From Blastocatellia bacterium (GTDB lineage: Bacteria > Acidobacteriota > Blastocatellia > RBC074): a stretch of 64,000 nt of DNA. How positions within the stretch are numbered: position 1 is the first letter of the stretch; each line of letters starts with the position of its first letter. Under the pieces are notes generated by a model that saw only the letters and a program-made list of their open reading frames with translations, searched no databases and was not told where the DNA came from. The stretch spans positions 7,070 to 71,069 of the forward strand of contig JANNYF010000152.1 of assembly GCA_031409955.1 (NCBI GenBank), written 5' to 3'. The position numbers were made by a program, and so were the translations under genes. This document shows positions 7,702-63,163 of the stretch, piece after piece.

Positions 7702-7807
7702 GTGGTCAGTGGTCGGTAGTCGGTGGTCGGTGGGGAAAAGGCAGAAGTCCGAACGCTGAACGCGGAATCCAGCACGTACCTCTTATTGACCACCGATCAC
7801 CGACAAC
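7702..7807. repeat. Inverted heptamer tandem-repeat element (GTGGTCG)n ... (CGACCAC)n
   Basis: GTGGTCA GTGGTCG GTAGTCG GTGGTCG at 7702-7733 and TGACCAC CGATCAC CGACAAC at 7787-7807. Confidence 0.8.
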
Positions 7808-7984
7808 TTTTTTCTATCATTACCATCAGAACTTTTAGTTTCATTTATGATAGTCGGTCAGTTTAGTATAAAGGCTCCCCAAGCTGCAAAAGTAAACGTC
7901 AGTTGTATTAGTGGGAAGCTCGCCCCCCCCCGTGAATGTCGAGCGTGATGCAACGCGTTAAAGTGGGAAGGATCGAAGAATGAC

Positions 7985-9064
7985 ATGCACCACCTCACCG
8001 AGGTTTTAGATTCCGTGGTCAGGAATCTGGCGGAGGATGACAAAGGCTCGCAGTATTGGTTAGGCGTTGATGGCGGTGGGACAAATACGCGGGCGATGGT
8101 CTTTCGTGCGCCGGATAATCTTGAGGTTGATTTGACCGAATGTGTCGTTGGCGAAGGCCGTGCCGAGGCTGCCAACTTCCATCGCGTCGGCGTCGAAGCC
8201 GCGACCAAATCTGTGACAACGGCCATCATCCTTGCGTGCCGTCAAGCCCAAATTACGCCATATCAAATCAGTGCCGCCTGCATTGGACTCGCCGGAGTTT
8301 CGCATCCTGACAATCATCGCAAAATGTACGACGCGATTGACGACGCATTGCCTGCGCTGAGGTTCACGTTGGAAACCGATGCGCGTATTGCCTTGGCTGG
8401 CGCAACCGCAGGCAAGCCCGGCATCGTGATTATTGCGGGTACAGGCTCCATCGCGTATGGCGTAAACAAAGACGGCGAAGTCGCACGCGCAGGTGGTTGG
8501 GGGCCAACGCTCGGCGACGAAGGCAGCGGCACCTACATTGGTCGCCGCGCGCTCGAAGCCGTCATGACCGCGTATGATCGGCGCGCTCATGATGAAACCG
8601 CATTGACGGAAAAAGTTTGCCGTTACTTCGACGTCAAAACACCGCCCGAACTTCCAGCCGTCATTTACAATCCTGATGCCAATGTGATGCCGCAAATCGC
8701 GCAACTTTCCCGGCTCGTAGTCGAAACCGCACAGGCAGGCGACGCGACCGCTATCGAAATTCTCAAAGACGCCGCACACGAATTAGCCCGCGCGATCAAA
8801 GCTGTGATTACGCAATTGAATATGCAAGAAGAAGCGTTTCGCATCGGCTATGTCGGCGGCGTGTTTAGTGCGGGCGAGTTAATTTTGCAGCCATTGCGCG
8901 AAGATCTTACCGCCTTCGCCCCAAAGGCGATGATCGAAGCCCCGCTTTACAAGCCAGCGGTTGGCGCGGCGAAGATGGCGCTGGCGAATTTTATCGAAAG
9001 CCGAGATCAATTGCTGGTTGGGCGACAAACGAGAAAAGCAAATCCATTACCCAGGCAACAATGA
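7985..9064 (+). CDS. BadF/BadG/BcrA/BcrD-type sugar kinase (MurK/N-acetylglucosamine kinase-like)
   Basis: LGVDGGGTNT, IAGTGS and GGWGPTLGDEGSG; directly upstream of murQ. Confidence 0.88.
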   Translation: MHHLTEVLDSVVRNLAEDDKGSQYWLGVDGGGTNTRAMVFRAPDNLEVDLTECVVGEGRAEAANFHRVGVEAATKSVTTAIILACRQAQITPYQISAACIGLAGVSHPDNHRKMYDAIDDALPALRFTLETDARIALAGATAGKPGIVIIAGTGSIAYGVNKDGEVARAGGWGPTLGDEGSGTYIGRRALEAVMTAYDRRAHDETALTEKVCRYFDVKTPPELPAVIYNPDANVMPQIAQLSRLVVETAQAGDATAIEILKDAAHELARAIKAVITQLNMQEEAFRIGYVGGVFSAGELILQPLREDLTAFAPKAMIEAPLYKPAVGAAKMALANFIESRDQLLVGRQTRKANPLPRQQ

Positions 9065-9951
9065 CCACTACCGAACAACCCAATCCTAACACGTCAGAAA
9101 TTGATCGCGTCTCCACGCTCGAAGCGTTGCGTATCATCAATGCCGAAGACAAAAAAGTTGCCGATGCGATTGCGCAAGTCTTGCCCGCGATTGCGAATGC
9201 AGTAGACGGAATTGCCGAACGTCTCGCACGCGGAGGCCGATTGATTTACGTCGGCACGGGCACGAGCGGGCGTTTGGGCGTACTCGACGCTTCGGAATGT
9301 CCGCCCACGTTTGGCGTGTCGCCGGAGTTGGTGCAAGGCATCATTGCGGGCGGCTACGAGGCTAGTTACAAAGCGGTCGAAGCATCGGAAGATGATCGGG
9401 CTGCCGGGGCTGCGGATTTACAAGCGCGGAATGTGAATGCGAACGATGTTGTCGTGGGCATTGCTGCGAGCGGACGCACGCCGTACACAATTGGCGCGGT
9501 CGAATACGCGCGCAGCATTGGCGCATTGACCGCCTGCATCACTTGCAATGCAAGCACCGCCCTCGCTGCTGCGGTGGAAATTCCGATTGAGCCGATTGTC
9601 GGCCCGGAAGTCATTGCCGGTTCGACACGCCTGAAATCCGGCACTGCACAGAAGTTGGTTTTGAATATGCTTTCGACAATGGCGATGGTGCGGCTCGGCT
9701 ATGTGAAGGGCAATCGCATGGCCAATATGCAAACCAAAAACATCAAGCTGCGTGAACGCGCGGTCGGCATCGTGAAAGACGAGTGCAACGTAGATCAAGC
9801 AACGGCACAAGCTGTTTTGGAAGCGGCGGAGTGGAAGTTGCCCGTGGCGTTAGTCATGCAGCAAGCGAATGTAAATCGAGAGGCGGCAGAAGCCGCGCTG
9901 GCAAAGGCCAATCAATTAGTGGCGCAGGCTGTGGCTGCATTAACCGCCTGA
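9061..9951 (+). CDS. murQ: N-acetylmuramic acid 6-phosphate etherase
   Basis: GTGTSGRLGVLDASECPPTFG, ASGRTPY, GSTRLKSGTAQKLVLNMLST. Confidence 0.97.
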   Translation: MTTTEQPNPNTSEIDRVSTLEALRIINAEDKKVADAIAQVLPAIANAVDGIAERLARGGRLIYVGTGTSGRLGVLDASECPPTFGVSPELVQGIIAGGYEASYKAVEASEDDRAAGAADLQARNVNANDVVVGIAASGRTPYTIGAVEYARSIGALTACITCNASTALAAAVEIPIEPIVGPEVIAGSTRLKSGTAQKLVLNMLSTMAMVRLGYVKGNRMANMQTKNIKLRERAVGIVKDECNVDQATAQAVLEAAEWKLPVALVMQQANVNREAAEAALAKANQLVAQAVAALTA

Positions 9952-9975
9952 ACACCCGTTCCTCTTGTTTCAATT

Positions 9976-11229: not shown

Positions 11230-11239
11230 AATCTCACTC

Positions 11240-15269: not shown

Positions 15270-15494
15270 CTCTATTGCTGCTTTTCCAACGCCAAGATAC
15301 TAACAGTTCATAGCTGACTTTTTTCTAAGGCGGTTAGTATCCTGGTGTTTTGATTTGTTTGATTTGACTTTAGCGGTATTGGCGGCTTCATCAGGCATTT
15401 GGTCACCAGCGATGCTACGGTGACGCCGACCCTCTATCTATTACCGCATTTTGTTTGGGAACATTGCCTGAAGTGATGGCAATCTTTGCTCTTC

Positions 15495-15590
15495 TTAATG
15501 GATTTGTGTGAGCAAGTACCAAATTGTTGCCATCAATAACAAGAAGGTGAGCAGGCTCAAAGAGCCAAAGGCTAAGACATCTCGGCGCAT
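15495..15590 (-). CDS. Possible 31-aa single-TM small protein
   Basis: MRRDVLAFGSLSLLTFLLLMATIWYLLTQIH; not in the ORF track; weak RBS. Confidence 0.3.
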   Translation of the reverse strand: MRRDVLAFGSLSLLTFLLLMATIWYLLTQIH

Positions 15591-16100
15591 AGATTCTTGG
15601 TGATTTTCCGTTGAAAAAAAAGGCGCGGACAAATTCCCCCTAATCCTAACTCTTGCCCGCGCCTGCAACTTGCATCAGCAAATCAGCTTTAAATTAATCC
15701 TCGACTGGGTCCCGGTTCTCACGGCTTACCACCGTTACACGATGGCACCTCTTCTCCCCCAAGCAAGAGATGCTCTAATCCATTGCAAAACTTTCACTAA
15801 CGCTCCCCCCGGGGCGCTGTTCTATTAGTTAAGCAATGAGCCGCTATAACGGATAGTCGAAGACCGCAGAGCCAACCGAGCATTTCCCCGCGAAGTGAAG
15901 CAAAAGAGTTTCTTTCCACTTCAATCCGACAAGAGGAGTCTAGGTTAGGTGTGTTAGAGACAAGTGAAGTTGAATTTAAGTCTTTGAAAAATAGTCTGAC
16001 GTCAAGTATGAAAGCCGAAAGTCAAAGACAATCCTTTCGGCAATGGCTCAGTGCGGAGAGGCCGCACTGAAGGTTCGACAAACTTCAGGTTGTCACGGGC

Positions 16101-16232
16101 ATAGAGAAAGCCTTCCTGCGAGCTGGACACGTTGAGCTTGAATTGCTAGCCCGGTTCAAAAATCTCACGACCCGAAGCTTGAAATTCGGCTTGATAAGGT
16201 TTTCCGCCACGGTATTTCTGCACGGTCAGGAA
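16101..16232 (-). pseudogene. Fragment resembling the DUF4384-like C-terminal domain of acidobacterial Ser/Thr kinases
   Basis: FLTVQKYRGGKPYQAEFQASGREIFEPG*QFKLNVSSSQEGFLY with an in-frame TAG at 16146-16148. The family resemblance is from recall. Confidence 0.45.
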
Positions 16233-16337
16233 GCAGCTCGTGCCCCTTGCCAAACGGTCACGCCAGTGACGACGGCATCAATGCTCCCATCAACTAGACC
16301 TGCTTGCGACGGGCGTTCAGGCGTCAGGTGGTTGCGC

Positions 16338-16505
16338 TCAGATGTTGATGTAACCGGGCCTCTGCCGCGCGCCCGCCAGATAGCCGTGCGCCAGCCGGTG
16401 CAATTCGCGGTACACAGTAGCGTCAGTTGCGCCAGTGCAGCTTGCTCTCCCTGATTCCAGGCAACCAGCCATTCGGTGATATTCGGTGTTTTCGAGGATT
16501 CTATA
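16338..16505 (-). pseudogene. ECF-type sigma factor N-terminal remnant (TIGR02999/ECF43-like)
   Basis: NITEWLVAWNQGEQAALAQLTLL, then a frameshift into VYRELHRLAHGYLAG; stops shortly after. Confidence 0.7.
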
Positions 16506-16645
16506 ACCGCGTCGGTTCGCTGCAGCGAAAGCCATGATAAGGTAGCACAAAGGAAGTTTTTTTGAGTCTGTCCCCGGCGGTGCAGAGGCGTACCTGTTTC
16601 GCCACATCATTCATGAGTGGACGGACGAACAAAGAGAACCAAGCA

Positions 16646-16996: not shown

Positions 16997-17012
16997 AAAC
17001 ATATCGGCGAAA

Positions 17013-17091
17013 GTAGCGCAACTTGCCGAGGTTGCGGTGCTGCTCAACTCGCCTCTGGTCGAAACACCGCAACCTCGGCAGGTTGCGCTAC
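17013..17091. repeat. REP doublet (REPIN-like) with GTAG ends
   Basis: 27-bp arms at 17013-17039 and 17065-17091 in inverted orientation with 1 mismatch; each is GTAG plus an internal palindrome CGCAAC..GTTGCG. Confidence 0.8.
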
Positions 17092-17111
17092 GCTTACTTT
17101 GGAGACAACCA

Positions 17112-28353: not shown

Positions 28354-28890
28354 ATGAGTTGCTGTCATCAATGCCGGAACGAAAATTTGACGGGCGCAGA
28401 ATTTTGCGATGAATGTGGTGCGCGTATGCAAATCCTGCTGGCGCAAGCCCTGGTTCCGCCGCCCCCGCCGAGCTTTTTATGTGACGATTTGAAGCCAAGT
28501 CCGGCGCGCCCGATTTCTCCCATCAGCAGATTGTTTGAAGATGAGGAAGAAGTGGTGAGTGGCAATGCGCGTCTGGTATTGATCGTGGCAGGGCGCGCGG
28601 GCAAAGAGTTTTCGCTCTCGAGGGCAGAGATGTTGATCGGGCGGTGGGATGCAGCGCGCGGGATTTTCCCCGATGTGGATTTGGATGATGCCGATCTGGA
28701 AACCAAAGTCTCGCGGCGACATGCACGCATCTTCAGCCAAAACAATCAATTTTGGATTGAAGATTTGGGCAGCCTCAACGGCACGGTCGTCAATCGCCAA
28801 CATCGCCTGCAACGCGGGCAACCGTATTTACTCAAAGACGGAGACGAAATTATCGTCGGCAAGACCTTTCTGAAATTTAGCCTTGTGTAG
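28354..28890 (+). CDS. Zinc-ribbon plus FHA domain protein
   Basis: CHQC..FCDECG; FHA motifs IGR, VSRRHA, DLGSLNGT. Confidence 0.92.
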   Translation: MSCCHQCRNENLTGAEFCDECGARMQILLAQALVPPPPPSFLCDDLKPSPARPISPISRLFEDEEEVVSGNARLVLIVAGRAGKEFSLSRAEMLIGRWDAARGIFPDVDLDDADLETKVSRRHARIFSQNNQFWIEDLGSLNGTVVNRQHRLQRGQPYLLKDGDEIIVGKTFLKFSLV

Positions 28891-28894
28891 CGCT

Positions 28895-30412
28895 ATGCCT
28901 TACTGTTCCCATTGTGGCAATCAGACTGGAACCGGAGACCCCTACTGCGGCGAATGTGGCGCACGGCAGGAAGCGGTCGCCATGCCTTCGACGCCACTGG
29001 TCACGCCGCCCAAACCAAGGGGCAGCGTCAACAATGCGCCGATGAACTTTCAGCTTGCACCGGGGACGGTGTTGGCAGATCGCTATCAAATCCAGCAACG
29101 TGTGGGCGGCGGCGGCATGGGGTCGGTGTACAAAGCGACCGATCGCAATCTGGCGCAGCGCGTGGTGGCGGTCAAAGAAATGATCGAACTCTTCGCCGAT
29201 CAAACCGCCCGCGCTAAAGCCATTGAAGATTTCAAGCGCGAATCCGAATTGCTGGCACGGATGGAGCATCCTTCGATTCCGACAATTTATGATTACTTCT
29301 TTGATCTGACGCGAGGCCGCTATTATCTGGTGATGAAGTTCATAGATGGCGGCGATCTCGCCACCTATCATCAAGCGGCGAAAGGCATCGTGGATGAAAT
29401 AACCGTCACGCGCTGGGCGGTGCAAATCTGTGAGGTGCTGGATTATATCCACTCGCAAACGCCGCCGCTGATTTATCGAGACTTGAAGCCGGCGAATTTA
29501 ATGCTGGATGCCCGCACGCAACGTGTGATGTTGGTGGACTTCGGCATCGCGCGCATTGTGGCTCCGACGCAGAAAGGTGTCACGGCAGTTGGCACCATGG
29601 GCTACGCGCCACCGGAGCTGTTTGCCGGCAAGGCGACACCCGCTTCCGACTTGTATTCATTGGGCGCGACGATGTTTCATCTGCTGACCGGCAAAGACCC
29701 ACAGGACAACCCGCTGTTGATTTTCGACTTTACAAAAAACCCCACGCCGCGCGCCATTAATCCGGCGCTCACCGAATGCATGGAACAAATCATTTGCCGC
29801 GCTGTTGAGCATGAGGCTTTAGCGCGGTTCCCCACCGCCCGGGCTTTTGGCCTGGCATTGGAAGCGCACCTCAACGATCTCAAGGCTGACAACGTCACCA
29901 GCGCCATTCCAATCATGGTCAGCGCCGCCCCGGTAATTGACCCGGTAATTGAAAGGCTTGAGGAGAGCGCACAACCGGCGGTGCCTGCGCCGTTGACTTG
30001 CGTTACTTGCAGCGAAGAGATTAGTCTAGGTGATCTGTTCTGCCCGTATTGTGGAACCGTATTGCAACGCGGTCAACGCATCACAGCCCGACTGATAGTG
30101 TTTGGAACCAATGAAATCGCAGCGCAATTCCCGCTGGATGTGGAAGGCGAACATCTGATCGGTCGCCCGGATCCGCACAATGGCGTCATTCCTGCCGTAG
30201 ACCTTTCGCGCTACGATAAAGGCGGTGGTGTTTCACGGCGTCACGCACGGATTATTACGCGTGGTCAGCAATTTATTATTGAAGATTTAGGCAGCAGCAA
30301 TGGCACGTTCATCAACGACAAACTCCAACTGGGACCGTCTGTGCAACACGTGCTGCGAAGCGGCGACCTGGTGCGTCTCGGCAGTACACAACTCCGGTTT
30401 ATGATTAACTGA
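28895..30412 (+). CDS. Ser/Thr protein kinase with zinc ribbons and C-terminal FHA
   Basis: CSHCG..CGECG; GGGGMGSVY, VAVKE, YRDLKPAN, DFG, APPE; CVTC..FCPYCG; IGR..SRRHA..GSSNGT. Confidence 0.95.
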   Translation: MPYCSHCGNQTGTGDPYCGECGARQEAVAMPSTPLVTPPKPRGSVNNAPMNFQLAPGTVLADRYQIQQRVGGGGMGSVYKATDRNLAQRVVAVKEMIELFADQTARAKAIEDFKRESELLARMEHPSIPTIYDYFFDLTRGRYYLVMKFIDGGDLATYHQAAKGIVDEITVTRWAVQICEVLDYIHSQTPPLIYRDLKPANLMLDARTQRVMLVDFGIARIVAPTQKGVTAVGTMGYAPPELFAGKATPASDLYSLGATMFHLLTGKDPQDNPLLIFDFTKNPTPRAINPALTECMEQIICRAVEHEALARFPTARAFGLALEAHLNDLKADNVTSAIPIMVSAAPVIDPVIERLEESAQPAVPAPLTCVTCSEEISLGDLFCPYCGTVLQRGQRITARLIVFGTNEIAAQFPLDVEGEHLIGRPDPHNGVIPAVDLSRYDKGGGVSRRHARIITRGQQFIIEDLGSSNGTFINDKLQLGPSVQHVLRSGDLVRLGSTQLRFMIN

Positions 30413-30476
30413 TAGTTGGGTTTTGGATTTTGGATTTCAACCCTCCAATGTCAAATCCCAGTAGCCCCCAAATACG

Positions 30477-30974: not shown

Positions 30975-31022
30975 CAGTGACGGATGAGATCGCCCCATCA
31001 TCCGCTGTTCGAGGTAACAAGT

Positions 31023-32177
31023 ATGCTCAATTGTGGGAAATGTGGAGCATCGGTCACGGAAACGGCGATTTATTGTGCAAGTTGCGGTCAGCGCCTGGCG
31101 GCGAACACTTCGTCAGCAACAGACGCTAAATCAGACTCTCCCCTAACCAAAGCCGCCAGCGCATTAGCCAAAGCTTCCGGGCTGGCAAAATCGCAACCGA
31201 ACCCGCGCTTTGGTTTGCTGGTGCGCGGGCTTTCCATTGTGGCTGGCGTCGTGCTGGCGTTCAGCGCGTATCTGGTCTATCGCAATCAAAGCTCGGTGGG
31301 CGGCACTCCGCCTGTCCTCAATATTGTCGCGCCGTTGGATAAATTCAACCGCCTGGTACAAGCCGGGAAACTCAGCGCCGAACAGGGGGATTTCAAAGCG
31401 GCGATTGTGAACTTCGAGGAAGCCGAAAAGCTGGTTCCCAACGATACGGATGTGCTGAAAAAGCTGGCGGATTTTTACTCCACCAATGGGCAGGTAGATA
31501 ACGCCGTGGCCAAATATTCCCGCATTGTCGAGCTGGATCCAAAAAATGTCGAAGCGCGGTACCAACGGGCGGAAATCCACATGACGCGGGGCTTCTGGAA
31601 GGAAGCGGTCGAAGACCTTCAGTATCTGGCCAGCAATGCTGCTCATACTGAGCAAGGCAACCTCGCGCGGCAAATTCTCGGCGGTGGCTTCACCGCCAAA
31701 CGCACGATTGAGTCATTGCCCGAAAAACATGCTTTGGCAAGAGGGCGCGGCAAACGCGGGCTGCAATTACCCGAAGTGAATGACACGCCGCCGCAGTTGG
31801 CGCTCACCTTGCCCAAGCTGGTCAATGGCGTCCCGGTGGCTCCGCTCAGCGCTTCGCCTTCCTCCGAGGAATATACCGGTGCCAGTGTCCTGGCGAAACG
31901 GCACAAAGACAAAGGGCAATATTATCTCAACGCCAGGATGTATTATTCCGCCATCAAAGAGCTGCAAAACGCGCGCCAATTGACATTTGATGACAGCGAT
32001 CTCAATTATCTGTTGGGACAAGCCCACGATGGGTTGAAGCAGTACCCGCAAGCGCGCAAATTTTATGAGCAGTGTGACAGCGGCGTGTATGTTCAGGTCG
32101 CCCGCGGAGCCGCCCAACAAGCCCGGAAAAACGAACAAAAACAAGCGAAGAAAACCCGCGAGAAAACGGACGATTAG
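31023..32177 (+). CDS. Zinc-ribbon, single-TM, TPR protein
   Basis: CGKCG..YCASCG, a TM segment (LSIVAGVVLAFSAYLVY) and TPR repeats. Confidence 0.85.
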   Translation: MLNCGKCGASVTETAIYCASCGQRLAANTSSATDAKSDSPLTKAASALAKASGLAKSQPNPRFGLLVRGLSIVAGVVLAFSAYLVYRNQSSVGGTPPVLNIVAPLDKFNRLVQAGKLSAEQGDFKAAIVNFEEAEKLVPNDTDVLKKLADFYSTNGQVDNAVAKYSRIVELDPKNVEARYQRAEIHMTRGFWKEAVEDLQYLASNAAHTEQGNLARQILGGGFTAKRTIESLPEKHALARGRGKRGLQLPEVNDTPPQLALTLPKLVNGVPVAPLSASPSSEEYTGASVLAKRHKDKGQYYLNARMYYSAIKELQNARQLTFDDSDLNYLLGQAHDGLKQYPQARKFYEQCDSGVYVQVARGAAQQARKNEQKQAKKTREKTDD

Positions 32178-32258
32178 CCATTAGTTATTAGCTCCATCGG
32201 TGGCAAAGTCCTAAAGCTAATTGCTAACAGCTAATCGCTAATCTACTAACAGCTAACA
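32173..32258. repeat. Inverted heptamer tandem-repeat element (ATTAGCy)n ... (GCTAAyy)n
   Basis: Left arm overlaps the TAG stop at 32175-32177; right arm ends 3 nt before the ATG at 32262. Confidence 0.8.
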
Positions 32259-32261
32259 TTT

Positions 32262-33995: not shown

Positions 33996-34004
33996 GATTG
34001 GTCA

Positions 34005-34102
34005 AGAGAGTCAGAGAGTCTGGAGAGTCGTGAAAATCTCGGACTCTCCAGACTCTCTGGACTCTATAAACTCTCCAGACTCCCTGACTCTCCAGACTTT
34101 TC
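34005..34102. repeat. Inverted nonamer tandem-repeat element (GGAGAGTCT)n ... (AGACTCTCC)n
   Basis: Three purine-rich units, then about six pyrimidine-rich units ending AGACTTTTC directly before the ATG at 34103. Confidence 0.85.
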
Positions 34103-35615: not shown

Positions 35616-37243
35616 TGAATATTGCCTCCCGCCGCATTTATCACTGGCTCGCCGCCGTTGTCTCAGGAGCGTTGCTGGTGCTGTCCTTCCCCAAATTTGA
35701 GTTCAGTTTTTTAGCCTGGATCGCACTTGCGCCCTTGTTGTTTGTGCTGACACAAGCTGAGCAAACCTTGCGCCGAGCATTTGGCTTGGGCTGGGTCACA
35801 GGCTTCGTGTTTTTCTTTTTCTCATGCAACTGGATCACGCATTCGATGATTCGGTATGGCGGAATGAATGTGGGTTTGGCGTATGCGGTCGCAGTGCTGT
35901 TCAGCGCAATTATCGGATTGTTCCCGGCGCTGTTTGCACTGGCGACGGTGCGCTTGCAAAAAGTTTTCGGGCTTTGGGCGTTGGGTGCTACGCCGTTGCT
36001 TTGGGTAGCGACGGAATGGTTGCGAGCAATAATGACCGGCGTAACGTGGAATGCGCTGGGCGTGTCGCAAGGCAGTCAGTTTACGGTTGCACGTTTCGCG
36101 CAAATCGGCGGGGTTGAGTTAATTAGTTGCAGTCTTGTTGCGACAAGTGCTGCGCTGATATTGCTGATGAACATCAAAACCCCAGCGGCAAAACGAATCC
36201 TCGTACTATTTTTATTCGTGGCGCTGGCATTTGTGCTGGTGGAGCGGGGAACTGCTCCGTCCCCCTTCACTAAAGTTAAGCCAATCGAAATCGCTGTCGC
36301 AGGCATTCAGCCCAACCTGCCGGTTGACATCCTGACGCATCCCGATGAATTCACACAGCGCAACACCAGTGGGCTGGAAACAAATCTCAAGCTCACGCGA
36401 GATGCCATCAATGAAACCCCGAACAAAAAAGCCGACCTCATCGTGTGGGCGGAATCGCCGCTCGTGCTGAATTACGAACAGGACGAAACCGCGCGGAACA
36501 AACTCAATGCGCTGGCCAAAGAGTACAACGCACATCTGCTTTTCAGTGCATTGGGACGCGATGGCGAGCAGGTTTACAACAGCGTACAAACGATTACACC
36601 GAACGACAAAGCACTGAAACGCTACGACAAAATGCGTCTCGTACCGTTTGGCGAATACGTGCCGTTGCGGGCGGTACTGGGCTGGTTCGTACCCGCGATG
36701 ATTGGTGATTTCACGCCGGGCAACACGGCGACGGTCAATTCGCTCAAGCTGGCGACAGAAGTTTCGGTTGTCCAAAACGATGAGACGAACGGCGAAGTGG
36801 CGCTCGAACGCACGACGAGTTTCGTCAAAGTCGGCACCTTCATTTGCTACGAAGCGGCTTATCCCAATCTGGTGCGGCAATTTGTTAACAACGGCGCAAC
36901 GCTGCTCATCAATGTTTCTGACGATGCGTGGTTTGGGAATTCTGCCGGAGCCGTGCAGCATCTGAATCACGCGCGCATGCGAGCGATTGAAAACAACCGC
37001 GATATTGTGCGCGTCACCAACAGCGGCGTTTCGGCCTTGATTACCGCGACTGGCGAAGTCGTTGCTCCCTTGCCGATGTTCGCCGCAGCCAGCAAAGTGT
37101 GGACGGCGGAAGAGCGCAAAGGTTTGACGTTCTATGCGCGGTACGGCGATTGGTTCGCCATGCTGAGCGTGGTCATTACAGCTATCGCCATTGGGGCCAG
37201 CTTCGTTTATCATTCGCGCGCCCCAGAAAAATCTCAGATTTGA
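35615..37243 (+). CDS. lnt: Apolipoprotein N-acyltransferase
   Basis: N-terminal TM bundle and nitrilase triad WAE, YDKMRLVPFGEY, ICYE; RAIEN, RVTNSGVS. Confidence 0.96.
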   Translation: MNIASRRIYHWLAAVVSGALLVLSFPKFEFSFLAWIALAPLLFVLTQAEQTLRRAFGLGWVTGFVFFFFSCNWITHSMIRYGGMNVGLAYAVAVLFSAIIGLFPALFALATVRLQKVFGLWALGATPLLWVATEWLRAIMTGVTWNALGVSQGSQFTVARFAQIGGVELISCSLVATSAALILLMNIKTPAAKRILVLFLFVALAFVLVERGTAPSPFTKVKPIEIAVAGIQPNLPVDILTHPDEFTQRNTSGLETNLKLTRDAINETPNKKADLIVWAESPLVLNYEQDETARNKLNALAKEYNAHLLFSALGRDGEQVYNSVQTITPNDKALKRYDKMRLVPFGEYVPLRAVLGWFVPAMIGDFTPGNTATVNSLKLATEVSVVQNDETNGEVALERTTSFVKVGTFICYEAAYPNLVRQFVNNGATLLINVSDDAWFGNSAGAVQHLNHARMRAIENNRDIVRVTNSGVSALITATGEVVAPLPMFAAASKVWTAEERKGLTFYARYGDWFAMLSVVITAIAIGASFVYHSRAPEKSQI

Positions 37244-37306
37244 GATTGGAAATTTGAGATAGCTGTTCCCTACATCTCAAATCTCAAATCTCAAATCTCA
37301 AATCTC
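37238..37306. repeat. Inverted heptamer element (TTTGAGA)n ... (ATCTCAA)4
   Basis: Left arm includes the lnt stop; the perfect ATCTCAA x4 array ends 2 nt before the ATG at 37309. Confidence 0.88.
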
Positions 37307-38301: not shown

Positions 38302-38370
38302 ATTTCCCCTCATCCAGCAAAGTTGCGCTGCGCTGCTAATTTAATTTTAGCCGGCAATAAGGAGTTCGTT

Positions 38371-39123: not shown

Positions 39124-39216
39124 TCTGTTTGGGATCATACAAAGAGAAAATGTCGTTTCGCAAGTCTTGCCGAAATTCTCTCCATCCGTCAGCGAAGCGT
39201 GTAAACGCCTGAAAAA

Positions 39217-40176
39217 ATGACTGCATCAACGCTCGTCGAAATCAAACAACTCAAGAAATATTTTCCGGCAGCGCACGGACAATTCGTGCATGCCGTAGAC
39301 GACGTTTCATTCAATATTCATCGGGGTGAAACGTTCGGACTGGTCGGCGAATCCGGCTGCGGCAAAACGACCGTCGGCAGATGTTTGCTGCGCCTGATTG
39401 AACCCACCAGCGGCGCAATCAAATTCGACGATCAAGATTTGCTCGGCCTCGGCAAAAGCGAAATGCGGGCGCTCCGGCGACGCATGCAAATCGTGTTTCA
39501 AGACCCGTATTCGTCGCTCAACCCGCGCATGAAAGTCGGCGACATCATCGGCGAACCACTGATCGTGCATGGCATCGGCAACAAACAAGAGCGCAAAGAC
39601 CGCGTCGCTGAATTGCTCAAGGTCGTCAAGCTTGATCCTGATTACGCGAATCGTTATCCGCATCAATTCAGCGGCGGACAACGGCAACGCATCGGCATTG
39701 CGCGGGCATTGGCGCTCAATCCTGATTTTATTGTGGCGGATGAGCCTGTGTCGGCGCTGGATGTTTCGGTGCAAGCGCAAGTTGTGAATTTGTTGCAAGA
39801 CCTGCAAGAGCAATTTGGATTGACGTATCTGTTCATCTCGCACGGACTCGCAGTGGTCGAGCATATTTCGACGCGCGTCGGCGTGATGTATTTGGGAAAG
39901 ATTGTGGAGCTTGCCCCGGCACTTGAACTTTACGAAAACCCGAAGCATCCTTACACGCAAGCGTTGCTGGCTTCGATTCCATTGCCCGACCCTGAACAAA
40001 CGCGTGACCGCGAGCGTATGGCTCTACGCGGCGAAGTTCCAACGCCGCTGAATCCGCCTGCGGGTTGTCGCTTTCACACTCGCTGCCCGCACGCGATGGA
40101 CAAATGCAAAACTACCGAACCCGAATTCAAAGAAATTGCACCCGGTCATTTCGCCGCGTGCTTTCTGAACGAGTAG
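39217..40176 (+). CDS. oppF: Oligopeptide/dipeptide ABC transporter ATP-binding subunit (OppF/DppF type)
   Basis: [36 protein letters not shown]. Confidence 0.92.
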
Positions 40177-40263
40177 ACAGTAGTCAGTAGCGGCCCCTTA
40201 TCTTTACTGCTGTACTCTGAAGCCTTCCTACCGATTACTGCCACCTATTAACAAGGAGGCAAT

Positions 40264-41028: not shown

Positions 41029-41076
41029 CAAGAAAAGGCACGGGACTGGTGCGCCAAGCCCGTGCCTATCTCTCCG

Positions 41077-41703
41077 CTAAAATTCGCGCCCCTGCTCAAA
41101 CGCTAACACCTCATCCACGCTCAATCTCGGTTTGCGTGGGTGATTACCCGGAGCCGCATACCCAACCGCAATCAACATCACGGGTACATAGCGATCCGAA
41201 ATACCGAACTCACGCTTCACGCCTTCGGGGTCAAACCCAATCATCGGGCCACTCACCAAGCCTTTCGCCTCCGCCGCCAACATCAACGTCATCGCCACCA
41301 AACCGCCCGAACGAAGCGCTTCATCACGCTGCATTTGCGGGTTGCCCTGATACATGCCCGTCGCCATGCCAACCACGTGATCTGCTGTCGCCTGTGGCAT
41401 CGCGCCCGCATCAACTAAGGGCTGATAGATTTGTGGCAGCTTTTCGTAGGCCTGCAAATCGCCCAGAACGATGAAGGTTACGGCGGCATCTGCGACTTTG
41501 GCTTGATTGTACGCGACCGCTTTCAAGCGCGCCTTTTCTTCGGGTTTTGTCACGGCGACAAAGCGCCAATGCTGGATGTTGTACGACGACGGCGCTTCGA
41601 TAGCGTACGAAATCAGTTCTTTGATTTCCGCCTCGGAAAGCGTTTTGGTCGTGTCGAAATGATTCGCTGAAATTCGCTGTTTGATGGTCTCAAGTGTATC
41701 CAC
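41077..41703 (-). CDS. Nitroreductase family protein
   Basis: [24 protein letters not shown]; GTG start with SD GGAGG. Confidence 0.93.
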
Positions 41704-41748: not shown

Positions 41749-42447
41749 TTATGGCAGATCAATCAAAATGATTTCACTGTCGGTTGTAGCTTCCAGCGCG
41801 AGGCTGGCTTCGCTGACGATGCGCGCCTGATCGCCTGTAGTGAAAGGCTCTCCGTTAATTTTCACTGCGCCTTCAATCACATACAGAAACGCGCGCCGCT
41901 GCGCTGCCAACGGATGCGCAATCGTGTCGCCCACGTTCAGCCGTGCCACATAAAACGTCACATCCTGATGCACTTTCACTGCGCCCGGCATATCCTGCCC
42001 GGAAGCAATCGGCAGGAATTTGCCGGTGCGCTCCTCGGTTGTGAATTGTTTTTGTTCGTACGAAGGCGTAAGCCCCGCCCGCTCTGGCAGCACCCACATT
42101 TGCAGAAGCTTCGCCACATCCGTTTCCGAAGCATTGAATTCCGAATGCGCCACGCCCGTGCCCGCCGTCATTCGTTGCACTTCGCCCGGACGAATGAAAC
42201 CAACGCCGCCCGTGCTGTCTTTGTGCGCGAGCGCGCCGCTCAGCACGTAGGTCACGATCTCCATTTCACGGTGCGAATGCGTCGGGAAGCCCCCGCCGCC
42301 TTTGATCGTGTCGTGATTGAAGACGCGCAACGGCCCGAAGGCCATATTGTTCGGATCGTAGTAGCGGTCAAAGCTGAATAACCAATAGGCCGAAAGCCAA
42401 TCGCCTTCGAGATGAAACCGATCTTTTGCTGCAATTTTCTGAATCAT
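41749..42447 (-). CDS. Pirin family protein (YhhW-like)
   Basis: FGPLRVFNHD, THSHREMEIVTY, HKDS, AHSE, LQMW. Confidence 0.94.
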   Translation of the reverse strand: MIQKIAAKDRFHLEGDWLSAYWLFSFDRYYDPNNMAFGPLRVFNHDTIKGGGGFPTHSHREMEIVTYVLSGALAHKDSTGGVGFIRPGEVQRMTAGTGVAHSEFNASETDVAKLLQMWVLPERAGLTPSYEQKQFTTEERTGKFLPIASGQDMPGAVKVHQDVTFYVARLNVGDTIAHPLAAQRRAFLYVIEGAVKINGEPFTTGDQARIVSEASLALEATTDSEIILIDLP

Positions 42448-42531: not shown

Positions 42532-42963
42532 CTAATGAAGCAATTTGTCGAGCAGTTCACTTAATCCTTTCTGCTCCGCTTTCGTGAGTGGTTTCAAGGA
42601 ATTTTCCGCTGCCTCCAGAATTTGTTTGAGCGTGCCTTCGATAAACTGAGCGCCTGTTTCGGACAACTCAATCAATTTCACGCGCCGATCCCCGCAGGCC
42701 AATCGTTTGACGTATTTCTTTTTTTCGAGCAAATCAATCAGCTTCGTTACATTCGCCCGCGACGAAAGCATCCGGCGTCCAATCTCAATCTGCGAAATCG
42801 GTTCGCCCGCACCATTCAGAATGCGCAGTACGTTGTAATGATTGTCCGTCAAGCCCCATTGCCCAAATCGCTCGTCTGATGCGCGCCAGAGTCGGTCACC
42901 CGCGCGCATCAATTTGAGTAGCGCTTGCTCAGCGCTATTGTTTGGAATTTTGACCTTGGGCAT
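42532..42963 (-). CDS. MarR family transcriptional regulator
   Basis: GLTDNHYNVLRIL, SRANVTKLIDLLEKK, DRRVKLIELS; the ATG at 42963 lies downstream of the promoter. Confidence 0.93.
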   Translation of the reverse strand: MPKVKIPNNSAEQALLKLMRAGDRLWRASDERFGQWGLTDNHYNVLRILNGAGEPISQIEIGRRMLSSRANVTKLIDLLEKKKYVKRLACGDRRVKLIELSETGAQFIEGTLKQILEAAENSLKPLTKAEQKGLSELLDKLLH

Positions 42964-42990
42964 ATTTGCATCCTTCCATTCGACAAGCGC

Positions 42991-43029
42991 ATAATAATCA
43001 TTCACCAGTGAATTGTCAACCAGGAAACA
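42991..43029 (-). promoter_or_regulatory. Sigma70-type promoter of marR overlapped by operator-like motifs
   Basis: Minus strand TTGACA-17 nt-TATTAT (43014-43019, 42991-42996); palindrome ATTCACCAGTGAAT in the spacer. Confidence 0.65.
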
Positions 43030-44256: not shown

Positions 44257-44260
44257 CCCC

Positions 44261-44420
44261 CCACGAAGCCACACGAAGAAGCACGAAGAAGAAATCAGAC
44301 AGGATTGACAAGATGAACAGGATTGATGAAACACTACTATTCGTCGAGGGTTTCTGTTCATCTTGCTCATCCTGTTCATTCTGTCAAAGATTCTTAGTGT
44401 AACTTCGTGTGGCTTCGTGG
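44261..44420. repeat. Nested inverted-repeat intergenic element
   Basis: Perfect 18-bp outer IR (CCACGAAGCCACACGAAG, 44261-44278 and 44403-44420) around an inner ACAGGAT(T)GA-type IR. Confidence 0.85.
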
Positions 44421-46307: not shown

Positions 46308-46396
46308 GAAAAGTCTGGAGAGTCTGGGGAGTCTGGAGAGTCTGGAGAGTCTCGGACTTCAAAGACTCTATGGACTCTCCAGACTCTCCAGACTCA
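46308..46396. repeat. Inverted nonamer tandem-repeat element between fliR and flhB
   Basis: (AGTCTGGAG)x4-5 and (AGACTCTCC)n; begins in the fliR stop and ends at the flhB ATG. Confidence 0.88.
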
Positions 46397-47170
46397 CATT
46401 GTTCCCAACATTCGTTCGACCGTGTGGCGCAGCGTGGTGAAGGCAGTGCGGATGGCGCCGGGCAAAAAGAAAACGGAGGCACCAATCAACCACAAGCCGA
46501 CGGCGATTTTGAGCGGAAAACCGAGAATCAGGATTTCTAATTTTGGCGCGACGCGTCCGGCCACCGCCAATAAACTTTCCACCGCCAACAACACGATGAT
46601 GGCCGGAGCCGCCAGCGCGACACCAACTGCCAACGCATCGGCGGAAAGCCGCAACATGATTTCGGCCATTGAACCGTTCATCCCGAAGCCGCCCGGAGAA
46701 ACAAATTGAAAACTGCGCACCGTGATTTCCAACATCCAATGGTGTCCGTCCGCGCCCAGCATCACCATTAGCCCCAGCATCTGCGCCAAAATCCCCAGCG
46801 CGGCGGTTTGCGCCTGGGTCGCCGGATCAATCGTACTCGCCAGGGATAAGCCCATTTGAAAGCCAACCAGGCTCGCCGCCACTTCCAACGCGCTGAACAC
46901 CAAACGTCCGGCAAAGCCTAAAATAAAGCCGATCATCAACTCTCCGCCGAGCAACAAGGTCAGGCTGACCACCTCCGTCGGCGGCGTTGGCACGTGCGGC
47001 AGCAGCACCGGCGTGACGATCAAGGCGATACCCATAGCCAGCAGCGCGCGGACTTTGCTATTCACCGCTTGGTGATTCCAAAACGGCGCGAACGTGACGA
47101 CGCCTCCCACGCGGGCCAGAACGACCACGAAGATCAAGACCGGGCGCAGTGGGATGATGATTGGTTCCAT
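46394..47170 (-). CDS. fliR: Flagellar biosynthesis protein FliR
   Basis: ARVGG..FAP, GFQMGLSLA..DP, DGHH, LAAP, GFPLKI. Confidence 0.95.
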   Translation of the reverse strand: MEPIIIPLRPVLIFVVVLARVGGVVTFAPFWNHQAVNSKVRALLAMGIALIVTPVLLPHVPTPPTEVVSLTLLLGGELMIGFILGFAGRLVFSALEVAASLVGFQMGLSLASTIDPATQAQTAALGILAQMLGLMVMLGADGHHWMLEITVRSFQFVSPGGFGMNGSMAEIMLRLSADALAVGVALAAPAIIVLLAVESLLAVAGRVAPKLEILILGFPLKIAVGLWLIGASVFFLPGAIRTAFTTLRHTVERMLGTM

Positions 47171-47275
47171 GGCGGGTGCGGCACGGGGGAATGTAAGCGA
47201 CCTGAACTTCTCGGAAGGATGCTGACAGCAGCTCAGGTCGCTTACGTTTCCCGTACTGCATCGGTATCCCAACCC

Positions 47276-47557: not shown

Positions 47558-47624
47558 AGTCCAGGGAGTCTAGGGAGTCCGCGACTCTCTAGACTCCCTG
47601 GACTCTCTAGACTCTCCCAGACTT
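47558..47624. repeat. Inverted nonamer tandem-repeat element between fliP and fliQ
   Basis: AGTCCAGGG AGTCTAGGG AGTCC / GACTCTCTA GACTCCCTG GACTCTCTA GACTCTCC. Confidence 0.85.
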
Positions 47625-52182: not shown

Positions 52183-52315
52183 GTAGTTCGATTGGTTGAG
52201 CCATCAGCCTTCCGCTGATGGTAAGTCATAGAGATTATCCGAGGCCATTGCTGAGGCACGAAGAAGCAGTGCCGGGCAAAATATCACCCGACGACGCACC
52301 TCACGCCTGACTTCA

Positions 52316-52343
52316 ATATCGGCAGGTTTGTCGGAGAACTTGA
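52316..52343 (-). promoter_or_regulatory. Sigma28 (FliA/SigD)-type promoter upstream of motA
   Basis: Minus strand TCAAG-N15-GCCGATAT. Confidence 0.65.
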
Positions 52344-52577: not shown

Positions 52578-52664
52578 AGTTAGGAATTAGGAATTAGGAG
52601 TTAGGATATGTGGCCACGAGCGTGAAAACAAAACCTAAATCCCAGCTCCTAATTCCTAACTCCT
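52578..52664. repeat. Inverted heptamer element (ARTTAGG)4 ... (CCTAAyT)n
   Basis: AGTTAGG AATTAGG AATTAGG AGTTAGG and CCTAAAT CCCAGCT CCTAATT CCTAACT, just after the flgE stop. Confidence 0.85.
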
Positions 52665-52673
52665 GTTCGGTCT

Positions 52674-54303: not shown

Positions 54304-54333
54304 AAATTCCTCCGCAAAGGTTGCTGATGGCTC

Positions 54334-58306: not shown

Positions 58307-58327
58307 TGTTATTCCTTATTAGTTGAA

Positions 58328-58432
58328 CCACGGGGAACACGGGGGCACGGGGAGGAAGGAGAGTTGGTAATACGAAGAAACGGCTGGCACGGATTTGCCG
58401 TGTCACCGCGTCTCTCCCCGTGTTCCCCGTGG
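58328..58432. repeat. Inverted repeat element (CACGGGGRA)n between fliH and fliI
   Basis: CCACGGGGAACACGGGG ... CCCCGTGTTCCCCGTGG with an inner GGCACGG/CCGTGTC hairpin. Confidence 0.8.
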
Positions 58433-58460
58433 TAAAACAGTCTACTCAATCCCTACTCCT

Positions 58461-60291: not shown

Positions 60292-60305
60292 AGTCAGTTC
60301 CTCTA

Positions 60306-60404
60306 AAAAAGGCAAAGGCAAAGATTGACTCTCAATTGATCTGAAATTTGAAATTTGAAATTTGAGATGACAATGATTTTTCCGAATCCCACTTTTGCCT
60401 TTTG
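60306..60404. repeat. Nested repeat element between fliF and fliG
   Basis: Outer AAAAGGCAAAG / CTTTTGCCTTTT IR enclosing (GAAATTT)3. Confidence 0.75.
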
Positions 60405-60411
60405 ATTTTTT

Positions 60412-62256: not shown

Positions 62257-62268
62257 TCGGGTCTAAAA

Positions 62269-62350
62269 AGTCGGAGAGTCGGGAGAGTCGGAGAGTTTGG
62301 AGAGTCGAGAGAGTCAATAGAGTCAGGACTCTTCAGACCCTAATTGACTC
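62269..62350. repeat. Inverted nonamer tandem-repeat element between fliE and fliF
   Basis: (AGTCGGAG(A))n x5-6 and a GACTC-containing partner arm that starts at the fliE stop. Confidence 0.82.
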
Positions 62351-62654
62351 AAACTTGCATGCGCATCACTTCTTCAAAAGCACCAATGAATTTGTTGCGC
62401 ACTTGCAGCGCCAGTTGAAAGCTGAGATCAGCGGTTTGCAACGCGGCGATGGTACGATGCAGGTCTTGCGATTCGCCTGTCACAGCTTTCCCAATCTCTT
62501 GCTCGGCACCTTTCTGCGTGCGATCCAACGTTTCAATCGAAGATTTCACATACTCGCCAAACGACGAAGAGCCAGCGCCCATAATCGAACTGGCTAAGGT
62601 CGGCGACGCAATCGGCGTCGGCGTCGTCAGGGCTAACGTTCCAGAAGTTTTCAT
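62349..62654 (-). CDS. fliE: Flagellar hook-basal body protein FliE
   Basis: SFGEYV..DLHRTIAALQTADLSFQLALQVRNK..EVMRMQV. Confidence 0.94.
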   Translation of the reverse strand: MKTSGTLALTTPTPIASPTLASSIMGAGSSSFGEYVKSSIETLDRTQKGAEQEIGKAVTGESQDLHRTIAALQTADLSFQLALQVRNKFIGAFEEVMRMQV

Positions 62655-63109
62655 TATGCTTCACCTAATTTGAGAGTGGCGCGCGCGAGTTCTTTGGCTG
62701 TATTGAACGCCGTAGCATTGGCTTCAAACGAGCGCGCGGCAGAGATCATATTGACGGTTTCTTCGAGCGGGTCTACGTCCGGCAACTTCACGTAGCCATC
62801 GGTATCCGCATCAGGATGTCCCGGGTCAAAGCGCCGGATGAATTGATCCGGTGGCGCGAGTTCCGCGCTGATCCGCACGCCCTGCGGCGCGCCCGATTGC
62901 GCATCGGCAAACAGGCTGGGCGAATCTGAAAATGAATTGTTCTCCTGTATCGCCACCGTTTCAAATACGATGTCGCGGCGACGATATGGCCCGCCTTCGT
63001 TGGTGCGCGTGGAATGCGCGTTGGCCAGGTTCGCGGCGGCAGTTTCCAACCGCTCGCGTTGTGCCGTCATACCTTGCGATGAAATTTTGAAGATGGTGAA
63101 TAGTGACAT
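62654..63109 (-). CDS. flgC: Flagellar basal-body rod protein FlgC
   Basis: GMTAQRERL..NLANA..PYRRR, DPGHPDAD..GYV..P.VD. Confidence 0.96.
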   Translation of the reverse strand: MSLFTIFKISSQGMTAQRERLETAAANLANAHSTRTNEGGPYRRRDIVFETVAIQENNSFSDSPSLFADAQSGAPQGVRISAELAPPDQFIRRFDPGHPDADTDGYVKLPDVDPLEETVNMISAARSFEANATAFNTAKELARATLKLGEA

Positions 63110-63163
63110 AATTGCTAATGCGAGAGCGCCAAGCTCAAATTTGAAATTTGAAATTGGCCCCGT

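Follow-up and report, generated by a model that had tools for sequence, protein, structure and literature searches.

To our knowledge, records of heptamer-type repeats go back to 1990 in cyanobacteria, with Xanthomonas, Beggiatoaceae and Bacteroidetes following later, and no origin or function has been established for them; the short tandemly repeated repetitive (STRR) heptamer sequences of filamentous cyanobacteria, among them hairpin-forming arrays in hupS-hupL and nif intergenic regions, were reportedly given by Mazel in 1990 and by Jackman and Mulligan in 1995. The elements presented here lie in the gene junctions of a 64,000-nt stretch (hereafter the window; G+C content 54.6%) of a Blastocatellia bacterium of the Acidobacteriota (contig JANNYF010000152.1, forward-strand positions 7,070 to 71,069), which carries a flagellar operon. 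They are palindromic short-unit tandem repeats, mostly of 7-mers, with 9- and 10-mers around a GAGTC core, and belong to the class of the STRR and other heptamer arrays and of the convergent GGGAATC pairs of Xanthomonas.

In the passages of the cyanobacterial literature that deal with hupS-hupL and similar gene pairs, hairpin-forming 7-bp repeat arrays between co-transcribed genes are described as nothing exceptional among filamentous cyanobacteria, and transcript stability or translational coupling is proposed there as the role of STRR hairpins (PMC2670836). For the GGGAATC heptamers of Xanthomonas, 70-75 convergent inverted pairs per genome have been reported, enriched in the spaces that separate aligned open reading frames (ORFs) (Rehm et al., 2015; PMC4692102). 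These arrays overlap stop codons on the coding strand, their C-rich strand lies at most 50 nt upstream of starts, the ORF to which the G-rich array lies nearer is "almost exclusively" its 5' neighbour, whatever that ORF's orientation, and copy number varies among strains while the single or paired type is kept (PMC4692102). TAACTGA arrays have been described a few nt upstream of starts lacking a Shine-Dalgarno (SD) sequence and, reversed, after stops in Beggiatoaceae, cyanobacteria and Bacteroidetes, with a patchy cross-phylum distribution and indels in 7-nt steps between strains (MacGregor, 2015; PMC4679880). According to the survey of Mrazek, as cited in that paper, heptamers are the commonest long simple sequence repeats (LSSRs) (PMC4679880). 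A Nostoc preprint reports that heptamer arrays affect reporter expression and leaves the mechanism unsettled. In Anabaena, a stem-loop has a stabilising effect on the nifH1 transcript (PMC4284476). Finally, REPINs, built on repetitive extragenic palindromic (REP) sequences, are characterised in two reports as inverted doublets whose fold is a long hairpin and which spread through the genome (PMC3116915, PMC2817692).

Tandem arrays in the gene junctions of the window

An initial annotation, made from the letters of the window alone, had listed about 14 intergenic sites bearing inverted tandem arrays. Tandem Repeats Finder (TRF) called short-period arrays at 14/14 of these positions, with sequences matching the earlier description, and 18 arrays (period 5-11, at least 2.5 copies) were detected in the intergenic DNA (7.2 kb including 6-nt margins), whereas 100 dinucleotide-preserving shuffles averaged 0.25 and never exceeded 2. 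In a separate tally 14 of 19 window arrays were intergenic, though intergenic DNA makes up 6.9 kb of the 64 kb. The period is 7 in most arrays and 8, 9 or 10 in the others. At least eight unrelated unit families occur within the window, with the GAGTCT family present four times (34005, 46308, 47558 and 62269) and the AAATTTG family three times (37238, 60342 and 63137). The architecture is constant while the units differ from site to site, as the annotation had stated and as reading of the sequences confirmed.

Sense-strand folds, compared with 100 shuffles each, gave significant hairpins at eight of the listed sites (z of -3.0 at 7702, -5.4 at 34005, -4.3 at 37238, -9.8 at 44261, -7.4 at 46308, -5.9 at 47558, -6.6 at 52578 and -3.3 at 58328). 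Folding was weak at 32173 (z -1.7), 40171 (-1.3), 30415 (-0.5), 60306 (-0.6) and 62269 (-0.7), and 63134 is a single arm only; nine array-free intergenic regions ranged from -1.4 to +0.6. About 9-10 of the 14 sites are true two-armed elements, and to these the description as inverted repeats applies; the others are one-armed or degenerate and eroded. Two features had escaped the annotation, a non-tandem hairpin between fliQ and fliR (47171-47275) and the nested double palindrome at 44259-44420. The elements are as follows (window coordinates, strand, description).

7700..7808, no strand assigned: two-armed element in the divergent region between lysR and a ROK-kinase gene; (GTGGTCG)x4.9 as G arm (7700-7733) and GACCACCGATCACCGACAAC as C arm (7788-7808); inverted repeat of 21 nt, 86% complementary; LysR family confirmed by profile scan; on the lysR sense strand the C-rich array stops 6 nt short of the ATG.
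30416..30470, + strand: weak element between the Ser/Thr kinase-FHA (STK-FHA) and RDD genes (TRF, Pfam); (TTGGATT)x3.1 from 3 nt past the stop, with a degenerate C-rich partner, CAAATCC..CCCCCAAAT, ending before the ATG.
32171..32258, + strand: two-armed element between the TPR and PP2C (SpoIIE-FHA-GAF) genes; (ATTAGCY)x3 with the TAG stop inside, (RGCTAAY)x6.9 ending 3 nt before the ATG; no SD.
34001..34098, + strand: two-armed 9-mer element between the PP2C and PrsW-FHA genes; (GAGAGTCTG)x3.3 and (GACTCTCCA)x6.4; no SD.
37234..37306, + strand: two-armed element between lnt and oppD; TTTGAGA-type G arm including the TGA stop, perfect (ATCTCAA)x4.7 C arm (100% matches) 2 nt before the ATG; orthologous in L001 and L002, where it is less expanded.
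40172..40250, + strand: degenerate element between oppF and yip1; (AGTAGAC)x2.7 including the TAG stop, eroded partner TACTGCTGTACTC..CCTACCGATTACTGCC, then a normal SD, AAGGAGG; the AGTAGAC unit is conserved in L001 and L002.
44259..44420, + strand: nested double palindrome between two enoyl-CoA hydratase genes, ech1 and ech2; CACGAAG forms the outer arms (44259-44290 and 44391-44420) and GATGAACAG the inner ones (44299-44323 and 44354-44387); ech2 truly starts at the ATG at 44438, which has an SD.
46310..46397, - strand: two-armed 9-mer element between fliR and flhB; + strand reading (AGTCTGGAG)x4.6 and (GACTCTCCA)x2.6; in sense orientation, the first GAGTC unit overlaps with the TGA stop, and TTTTC closes the C arm ahead of the ATG.
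47171..47275, - strand: non-tandem hairpin filling the fliQ-fliR junction, GTAAGCGACCTGA / TCAGGTCGCTTAC, z -6.1; the true start of fliR is an ATG near 47170, the longest-ORF start (TTG 47272) being about 35 codons too long.
47558..47616, - strand: two-armed 9-mer element between fliP and fliQ; 3-nt loop; the C arm directly adjoins the fliQ ATG.
52578..52664, - strand: two-armed element immediately past the flgE stop and some 390 nt before motA; (TTAGGAA)x3.9 and (CCTAACT)x4.4; inverted repeat of 26 nt, 88% complementary.
58322..58438, - strand: two-armed element between fliH and fliI; (CACGGGGAA)x2.9 and CCCCGTG x2, with an unrelated inner hairpin, followed by an SD-like AAGGAA; inverted repeat of 23 nt, 91% complementary.
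60305..60411, - strand: element between fliF and fliG; short outer arms AAAGGCA x2.7 / TGCCTTT around a one-directional (TGAAATT)x3.4 array; inverted repeat of 18 nt, 83% complementary.
62269..62348, - strand: essentially one long arm between fliE and fliF; + strand (AGTCGGAGAG)x5.5, which in sense puts a C-rich array ahead of fliF; only about 1.5 complementary units, degenerate in sequence, beside the fliE TGA stop; no inverted repeat of at least 10 nt; FliE by profile scan.
63131..63155, - strand: single (AAATTTG)x2.7 array between flgB and flgC (Pfam); same unit family as at 60342 and related to 37238.

As the hairpin between fliQ and fliR demonstrates, occupation of these junctions is open to any kind of hairpin. 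In L027 and L034 the same junction holds REP-like non-tandem palindromes with a shared core, GCAGGCTGCCAGCCTGC, where other relatives have tandem-array palindromes. Near the element at 52578, between flgE and motA, relatives (L008-L025, just past the flgE stop) have in conserved form TAAAGTTT-N11-(G)CCGATA, a promoter motif of sigma-28 (FliA) type, and its counterpart in the window at about 52270-52330 is TCAAGTT..GCCGATAT. This motif places the 52578 element upstream of an internal promoter and not beside a coupled start.

The relation of the arms to stop and start codons was read directly and agrees with the annotation. The stop codon lies within the first unit at 32173 (TAG in ATTAGCC), 37238 (TGA in TTTGAGA), 40171 (TAG in AGTAGAC), 46308 and 62269 (both TGAGTC), and a distance of 0-6 nt separates the end of the C-rich arm from the ATG of lysR, PP2C, prsW, oppD and flhB, to which fliQ can be added. 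All eight arm-abutted starts lack an SD (8/8, anti-SD duplex dG of at least -0.9 kcal/mol), against a median of -3.1 kcal/mol and several values of -8 to -12 kcal/mol at other starts. The possibility that the upstream gene keeps an SD at its end and that the hairpin delivers it to the start, as a split ribosome-binding site, was rejected: GGGAG at the fliR end of L001 is explained by amino-acid conservation and the other junctions have no such SD. On crude gene maps of the compared loci (L001-L040 from Blastocatellia, L041 from a "Deltaproteobacteria" metagenome-assembled genome (MAG) and L042-L080 from other phyla), the G excess in the 25 nt upstream of starts is about 0 in L001-L040 and +1.5 in L042-L080, which suggests that Blastocatellia rely less on SD sequences.

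Gene configuration was scored in the close clade nearest to the window (L001-L005, L007, L012, L036 and L039), for intergenic regions of at least 25 nt. Arrays occur in 34/94 co-directional regions, against 1/17 convergent and 2/14 divergent ones (34/94 vs 3/31, Fisher p=0.006). None of the elements was among the sites returned by a terminator scan, no T run follows the stem, and identity with intrinsic terminators was rejected on these two grounds; Rfam 15 gave 0 matches in the whole window.

Origin and turnover at orthologous junctions

The flagellar operon is syntenic with about 40 loci of Blastocatellia and Pyrinomonadaceae, the FliP of the window being at most 90% identical to proteins of their MAGs; FliP relatives and synteny both place the organism in the Blastocatellia. 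The annotation had proposed a presence/absence comparison of orthologous regions, and this found compact as against filled junctions at conserved operon positions. In most Pyrinomonadaceae the junctions are minimal: fliR-flhB reads TAAATG (as in L003), TAATATG or TAGAAAATG and measures 1-10 nt in about 20 relatives, while the fliP-fliQ gap of compact relatives is 0-1 nt, read as a start overlapping the stop. In the close clade, palindromic arrays of 60-240 nt stand at the junctions that are minimal elsewhere. The comparison shows the elements as secondary fillings of ancestrally 0-20-nt gene junctions, often with overlapping stop and start. The annotation had offered an unrecognised insertion or expansion mechanism as one option; insertion or expansion into formerly short junctions is supported by the comparison, and "unrecognised" was wrong, since a described class exists.

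The same junctions show fast turnover, in which units are replaced, copy numbers shift, new pairs nest and elements collapse to about one unit. Among relatives 89-95% identical in FliP, the fliP-fliQ unit is GGAGAGTCT in the window, AATTGAG in L001 and L002, ATTAGCY in L003 and L005, ATTTGRG in L004, GGATGAR in L007 and L036, GCAGATT in L012 and GGAGTCC in L039. At lnt-oppD and oppF-yip1 the unit family is common to the window, L001 and L002; the perfect ATCTCAA x4.7 run on one arm at lnt-oppD is found in the window only and looks like recent slippage. The fliR-flhB junction of L002, TAA-GTCCATAGA-TTTTTCATG, reads as one unit between the flanks of the window, a collapsed element. At ech1-ech2 the outer CACGAAG arms are common to the window and L002 while the inner arms differ (GATGAACAG vs CAAAAGG), and L001 has the inner pair only; shared outer and differing inner arms indicate that new arm pairs arise inside old ones. 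Exact look-ups of window proteins, or of a coding-sequence pattern in metagenomes, returned no contigs of the same species. The fliP-fliQ junction of L035 is occupied differently, by a 4.2-kb insert with a gene for a 1300-aa hybrid sensor histidine kinase/response regulator (L035:10664-14566), and no flanking arms were found at this insert.

We tentatively adopt a combined reading, whose chance of being right we put a little short of even: as secondary fillings, the elements would grow by slippage and inverted duplication and be tolerated as hairpins that keep translational coupling. Arrays would grow by replication slippage, and the second arm would come from inverted duplication or arm-to-arm conversion. 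Elements would persist mainly at co-directional, co-transcribed junctions, because a hairpin without a U tract that reaches from stop to start would loop the inserted DNA out and bring the two codons together. A ribosome terminating in or next to the stop-proximal G-rich arm would, by its established footprint, have to melt roughly the first 12-15 nt of that arm and would expose the SD-less, C-rich start region. Coupling between the two cistrons would then survive the 60-100 nt of inserted DNA. The hairpin may also buffer the 3' end of the upstream mRNA in a REP-like manner. The ancestral compact junctions were probably translationally coupled. If hairpins do keep coupling across inserts, they illustrate how an operon can accommodate junk that separates coupled cistrons.

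Polarity, unit repertoire and genomic context

All elements had been described as oriented with transcription, on both strands. This is a tautology of symmetry and carries no information on transcription, because the reverse complement of a palindrome with a G arm followed by a C arm is again a G arm followed by a C arm. What does hold is the 5' position of the G-rich arm, together with the near-absence of the C-first class. In the window and the Blastocatellia loci, G exceeds C in 22/24 left arms and C exceeds G in 16/18 non-tied right arms. Strict pairs, in which both arms were called by TRF (metagenome matches included), comprise 22 G-first, 3 C-first and 2 tied cases (binomial p=1.6e-4), and the three that are C-first by G/C count are all T>A-first. 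An independent inverted-repeat finder gave 21 G-first vs 4 C-first, six more elements under spurious ORFs were G-first without exception (6/6), and arrays with no recognisable partner had the 5' side of the G-rich strand towards the nearer gene in 21/26 cases (p=0.0025). The rule amounts to "G-rich sense after a stop, C-rich sense before a start" in all four gene configurations, so for gene-adjacent elements the DNA and the mRNA statements are inseparable. Non-tandem hairpins at the same loci divide 27:17 (tandem vs non-tandem, Fisher p=0.06). The G/C skew of array-free intergenic regions is -0.2 and +0.5 next to stops and -0.5 and 0.0 next to starts, against +2.3 and -1.8 in array-bearing regions of the close clade.

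A relation to the transcribed strand was looked for in three properties. Of 26 elements between co-directional genes, the sense strand folded more stably in 14 and the antisense strand in 12 (mean difference -0.8 kcal/mol, Wilcoxon p=0.98). G.U pairs, which turn into A.C mismatches on the opposite strand, gave no bias either, the sense fold having more of them in 11 elements and the antisense fold likewise in 11. As for arm length, the start-proximal arm was longer in 7 cases, the stop-proximal one in 7, and the two were equal in 14. Of the RNA-level device that the annotation had proposed, there stand hairpins without U tracts in transcribed regions and a co-directional preference; the stability, G.U and arm-length tests were negative.

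These results bear directly on an adaptive RNA device, in which the hairpins would be selected to regulate operon expression (by coupling, by setting fliPQR-flhB stoichiometry or by REP-like 3'-end protection as in malEFG) and their tandem nature would be incidental. Every junction of fliP-fliQ-fliR-flhB in the window holds a hairpin, tandem or not, fliP-fliQ is occupied across the whole close clade despite the turnover of units, arm-abutted starts lack an SD and arrays prefer co-directional junctions; the same roles have been proposed for cyanobacteria (PMC2670836), beside the nifH1 stem-loop of Anabaena (PMC4284476). However, neither G.U pairing nor stability bears a sense-strand signature, many relatives do with junctions of 0-10 nt, the elements at 7702 and 52578 are in non-coupling positions, and 5/14 sites fold no better than shuffles. 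We regard such a device as rather unlikely.

Units recur between different elements more often than expected, with 17 exact and 54 one-mismatch matches vs 1.5 and 19.9 after permutation of the letters within each unit. Recurrent units are AAATTTG (twice in the window, and in L004), ATTGGTC (twice in L005, and in L041), AGCTGTT, ACAGTAG and AAAAGGC. Among metagenome contigs, 120 loci matched GGAGAGTCTGGAGAGTC exactly, mostly as isolated two-unit matches; 13 of them are genuine two-armed GGAGAGTCT palindromes, on contigs of 44-67% G+C, and all of these are G-first. A viral collection gave isolated two-unit matches only. Two contigs of metagenome Ga0187894 (L138:197-392 and L155:6753-6961) share a composite of about 200 nt at 75-82% identity, made of outer GGAGAGTCT arms, inner CATTGTC arms and a core of about 70 nt, to which L155 adds a third, outermost arm pair of CACAGAGGA type; blastn and tblastx detected no similarity between their flanks. 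A composite shared in unrelated contexts indicates that whole elements can be copied to new sites. In the largest palindrome (L198, 22 + 19 copies) the order of unit variants is mirrored between the arms, a score reached by 0/300 permutations, which points to inverted duplication or arm-to-arm conversion and not to independent slippage. Mirror order was significant in L198 only, and the short arrays of the window are uninformative in this respect. The idea that the units are themselves quasi-palindromes was dropped, as the best-register self-complementarity (0.517 vs 0.493 +/- 0.013) was marginal.

The shared composite is also what non-autonomous mobile elements would leave, comparable to miniature inverted-repeat transposable elements or REPINs, with the tandem arrays as terminal inverted repeats and a transposase elsewhere in the genome. 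Recurrence of unit families within one genome (GAGTCT and AAATTTG in 64 kb) and between genomes, and the replacement of unrelated elements by each other at one junction, fit this explanation as well. Against it, copies other than L138 and L155 share the unit only and no core, and growth of one arm by perfect copies points to slippage. Reading of the junctions, with no systematic search made, revealed neither target-site duplications nor conserved termini. Profile scans (Pfam and NCBIfam) covered about 45 window ORFs, about 20 in the window at 1-28 kb being left out, and among those scanned there is no transposase or REP-associated tyrosine transposase (RAYT). Mobility of this kind seems to us improbable.

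Array-specific, symmetric G-first polarity would also follow from a dedicated and so far unrecognised repeat-adding process. A break in a gene junction or at a hairpin tip would be healed by a telomerase- or reverse-transcriptase-like or break-healing polymerase with short templates, which would place G-rich units on both 3' ends and yield head-to-head arrays with the G-rich strands inward, the hairpins being a footprint and not selected devices. New arm pairs at the centre of old ones, a limited unit repertoire common to distant genomes and arms that always have the same unit agree with such a process. The idea is purely inferential, however, neither an enzyme nor a template having been identified; an mRNA rule describes the polarity just as well, the G/C count makes three pairs C-first, and one-armed arrays and unequal arms are common. 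We consider it a long shot, although, if polarity does reflect a synthesis mechanism, it would be a new source of bacterial repeats.

Several of these observations weigh against the combined reading of slippage, inverted duplication and tolerated hairpins. G-first polarity is specific to arrays and not general to hairpins or intergenic DNA, and a model based purely on tolerance or on selection does not obviously predict it. Selection on sense RNA structure is not detectable (n=26, modest power), and the roles in coupling and stability rest on inference. The elements at 7702 (divergent) and 52578 (390 nt from the next start) sit where coupling could not work. Identical units across genomes of 44-67% GC, even in the "Deltaproteobacteria" MAG L041, are unexpected from local slippage alone, and the preference for 7 nt is not explained.

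The genes around the elements are listed below; fliJ, fliN and fliO are named by position only.

Within 28.9-45.2 kb, + strand: FHA-linked signalling cluster (Ser/Thr kinase-FHA, RDD, TPR, SpoIIE/PP2C-FHA-GAF and PrsW-FHA; Pfam).
Within 28.9-45.2 kb, + strand: lnt, oppD/oppF-type ATPases, yip1 and two enoyl-CoA hydratase genes.
41077-41703, - strand: nitroreductase family protein.
41749-42447, - strand: Pirin.
42532-43005, - strand: MarR.
45.2-63.5 kb, - strand: flagellar operon, flgB flgC fliE fliF fliG fliH fliI fliJ fliK, a 388-nt gap, then flgE motA motB fliL fliN fliO fliP fliQ fliR flhB.

In the FHA-domain cluster (28883-35320; Ser/Thr kinase-FHA with a zinc ribbon, SpoIIE/PP2C-FHA-GAF and PrsW protease-FHA, together with RDD and TPR genes) array elements stand at four successive junctions. 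Between oppD and oppF (window 38302-39216) two small low-GC ORFs are located, at 38371-38658 (95 aa) and 38659-39123 (154 aa); neither has a Pfam or NCBIfam match, and the N-terminus of the second, "IVDANLL", is PIN-like by eye. The same junction of L001 and L002 carries another inserted gene, a Uma2-family PD-(D/E)XK putative restriction endonuclease (PF05685, E=1.7e-29); small selfish genes apparently land here. Two long non-tandem hairpins lie between convergent genes, one with an almost wholly Watson-Crick 27-bp stem and 2 G.T pairs (16997-17093, GTAGCGCAACTTGCCGAGGTTGCGGTG..., z -8.8) and the other with a 9-bp GC-rich stem and a few outer pairs (41029-41076, z -4.6); both look like bidirectional terminators or REP-like elements. 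At 15270-16645 (1.4 kb) there is no convincing ORF and no Rfam match.

Comparison with described repeat systems

A match to an already described family, which the annotation had named as a refutation, is in essence given by the STRR hairpins and by the GGGAATC pairs of Xanthomonas. The annotation had also mentioned similar arrays flanking four-helix-bundle and GxxExxY genes. This association found no support, same-period TRF arm pairs being at most 125 nt apart within an element; looser arm pairing gave three spans of 373-384 nt (L027, L034 and L039), the ORFs in their spacers not being listed. A literature search for a link of such arrays to either kind of gene, and for STRR unit sequences, returned nothing usable. 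What the present loci add to the heptamer-type repeats is an acidobacterial clade in which about one third of the co-directional intergenic regions of at least 25 nt carry arrays. Compared with one another, they also form a clean series that begins with stop and start codons that overlap or nearly adjoin and leads up to palindromes of 60-240 nt at the same junctions of the flagellar operon. The symmetric, array-specific polarity and the limited unit repertoire shared across genomes make an old puzzle more testable.

The likeness to STRR repeats extends to tandem 7-nt units in intergenic DNA, several unit families per genome, inverted arrays that form hairpins between co-transcribed genes, and a sequence that varies while the structure stays constant between close relatives. 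The STRR2 unit TTGGTCA is presumably the same as the ATTGGTC unit of L005 and L041. The host here, however, is an acidobacterium and not a (heterocystous) cyanobacterium as in the original definition, GAGTC-family 9- and 10-mers are prominent beside the 7-mers, and the arrays fill whole stop-to-start junctions of the flagellar operon.

With the GGGNATC repeats of Xanthomonas and Nostoc the elements share the same polarity rule and the arrangement of two opposite-strand arrays of one unit with converging G-rich strands. Xanthomonas has one dominant unit with tracts of 3-4 G per genome, whereas here there are many units, mostly without G tracts. This touches on the idea that the arrays are multimeric binding sites for a protein (S1, a CsrA or Csp-type protein or a DNA-binding regulator) or form G-quadruplex (G4) or i-motif structures, as proposed for the TAACTGA repeats (PMC4679880), the Nostoc heptamers and GGGAATC (PMC4692102). 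The position of the arrays next to start codons would suit it. With at least eight unrelated unit families in 64 kb, however, one binding specificity cannot account for them all, and the complementarity of the arms is left unexplained. G4 formation is taken to need at least four tracts of three or more G; GGAGAGTCT, TTTGAGA, ATTAGCY, AGTTAGG, GTGGTCG and AGTAGAC have no such tract, and only the CACGGGGAA array (58328) has them, three in number. The units being mostly without G tracts, the G4 reading does not transfer, and we see very little chance for this group of explanations. The TAACTGA repeats resemble the present arrays as heptamers just upstream of SD-less starts; they form 169 direct sets and one indirect set of one unit, in contrast to the mostly paired palindromes of many units described here.

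Intrinsic terminators are similar in having a stable hairpin just past the stop, and differ in that the present elements have no T run and mostly lie inside operons, abutting the next start. REP, BIME and REPIN sequences are likewise extragenic palindromes transcribed in operons, with hairpins that lack U tracts, and the REP at malE-malF was reportedly shown by Newbury in 1987 to protect the upstream mRNA. REP sequences, however, form a conserved family of 20-40 nt with hundreds of copies and a cognate RAYT, whereas the arms here are tandem arrays of site-specific sequence. With head-to-tail units of 5-11 nt beyond chance, an intergenic location and families that recur within the 64 kb seen, the elements agree with heptamer-type LSSRs, and they are filed under this wider heptamer/LSSR class and not as STRR repeats in the strict sense.

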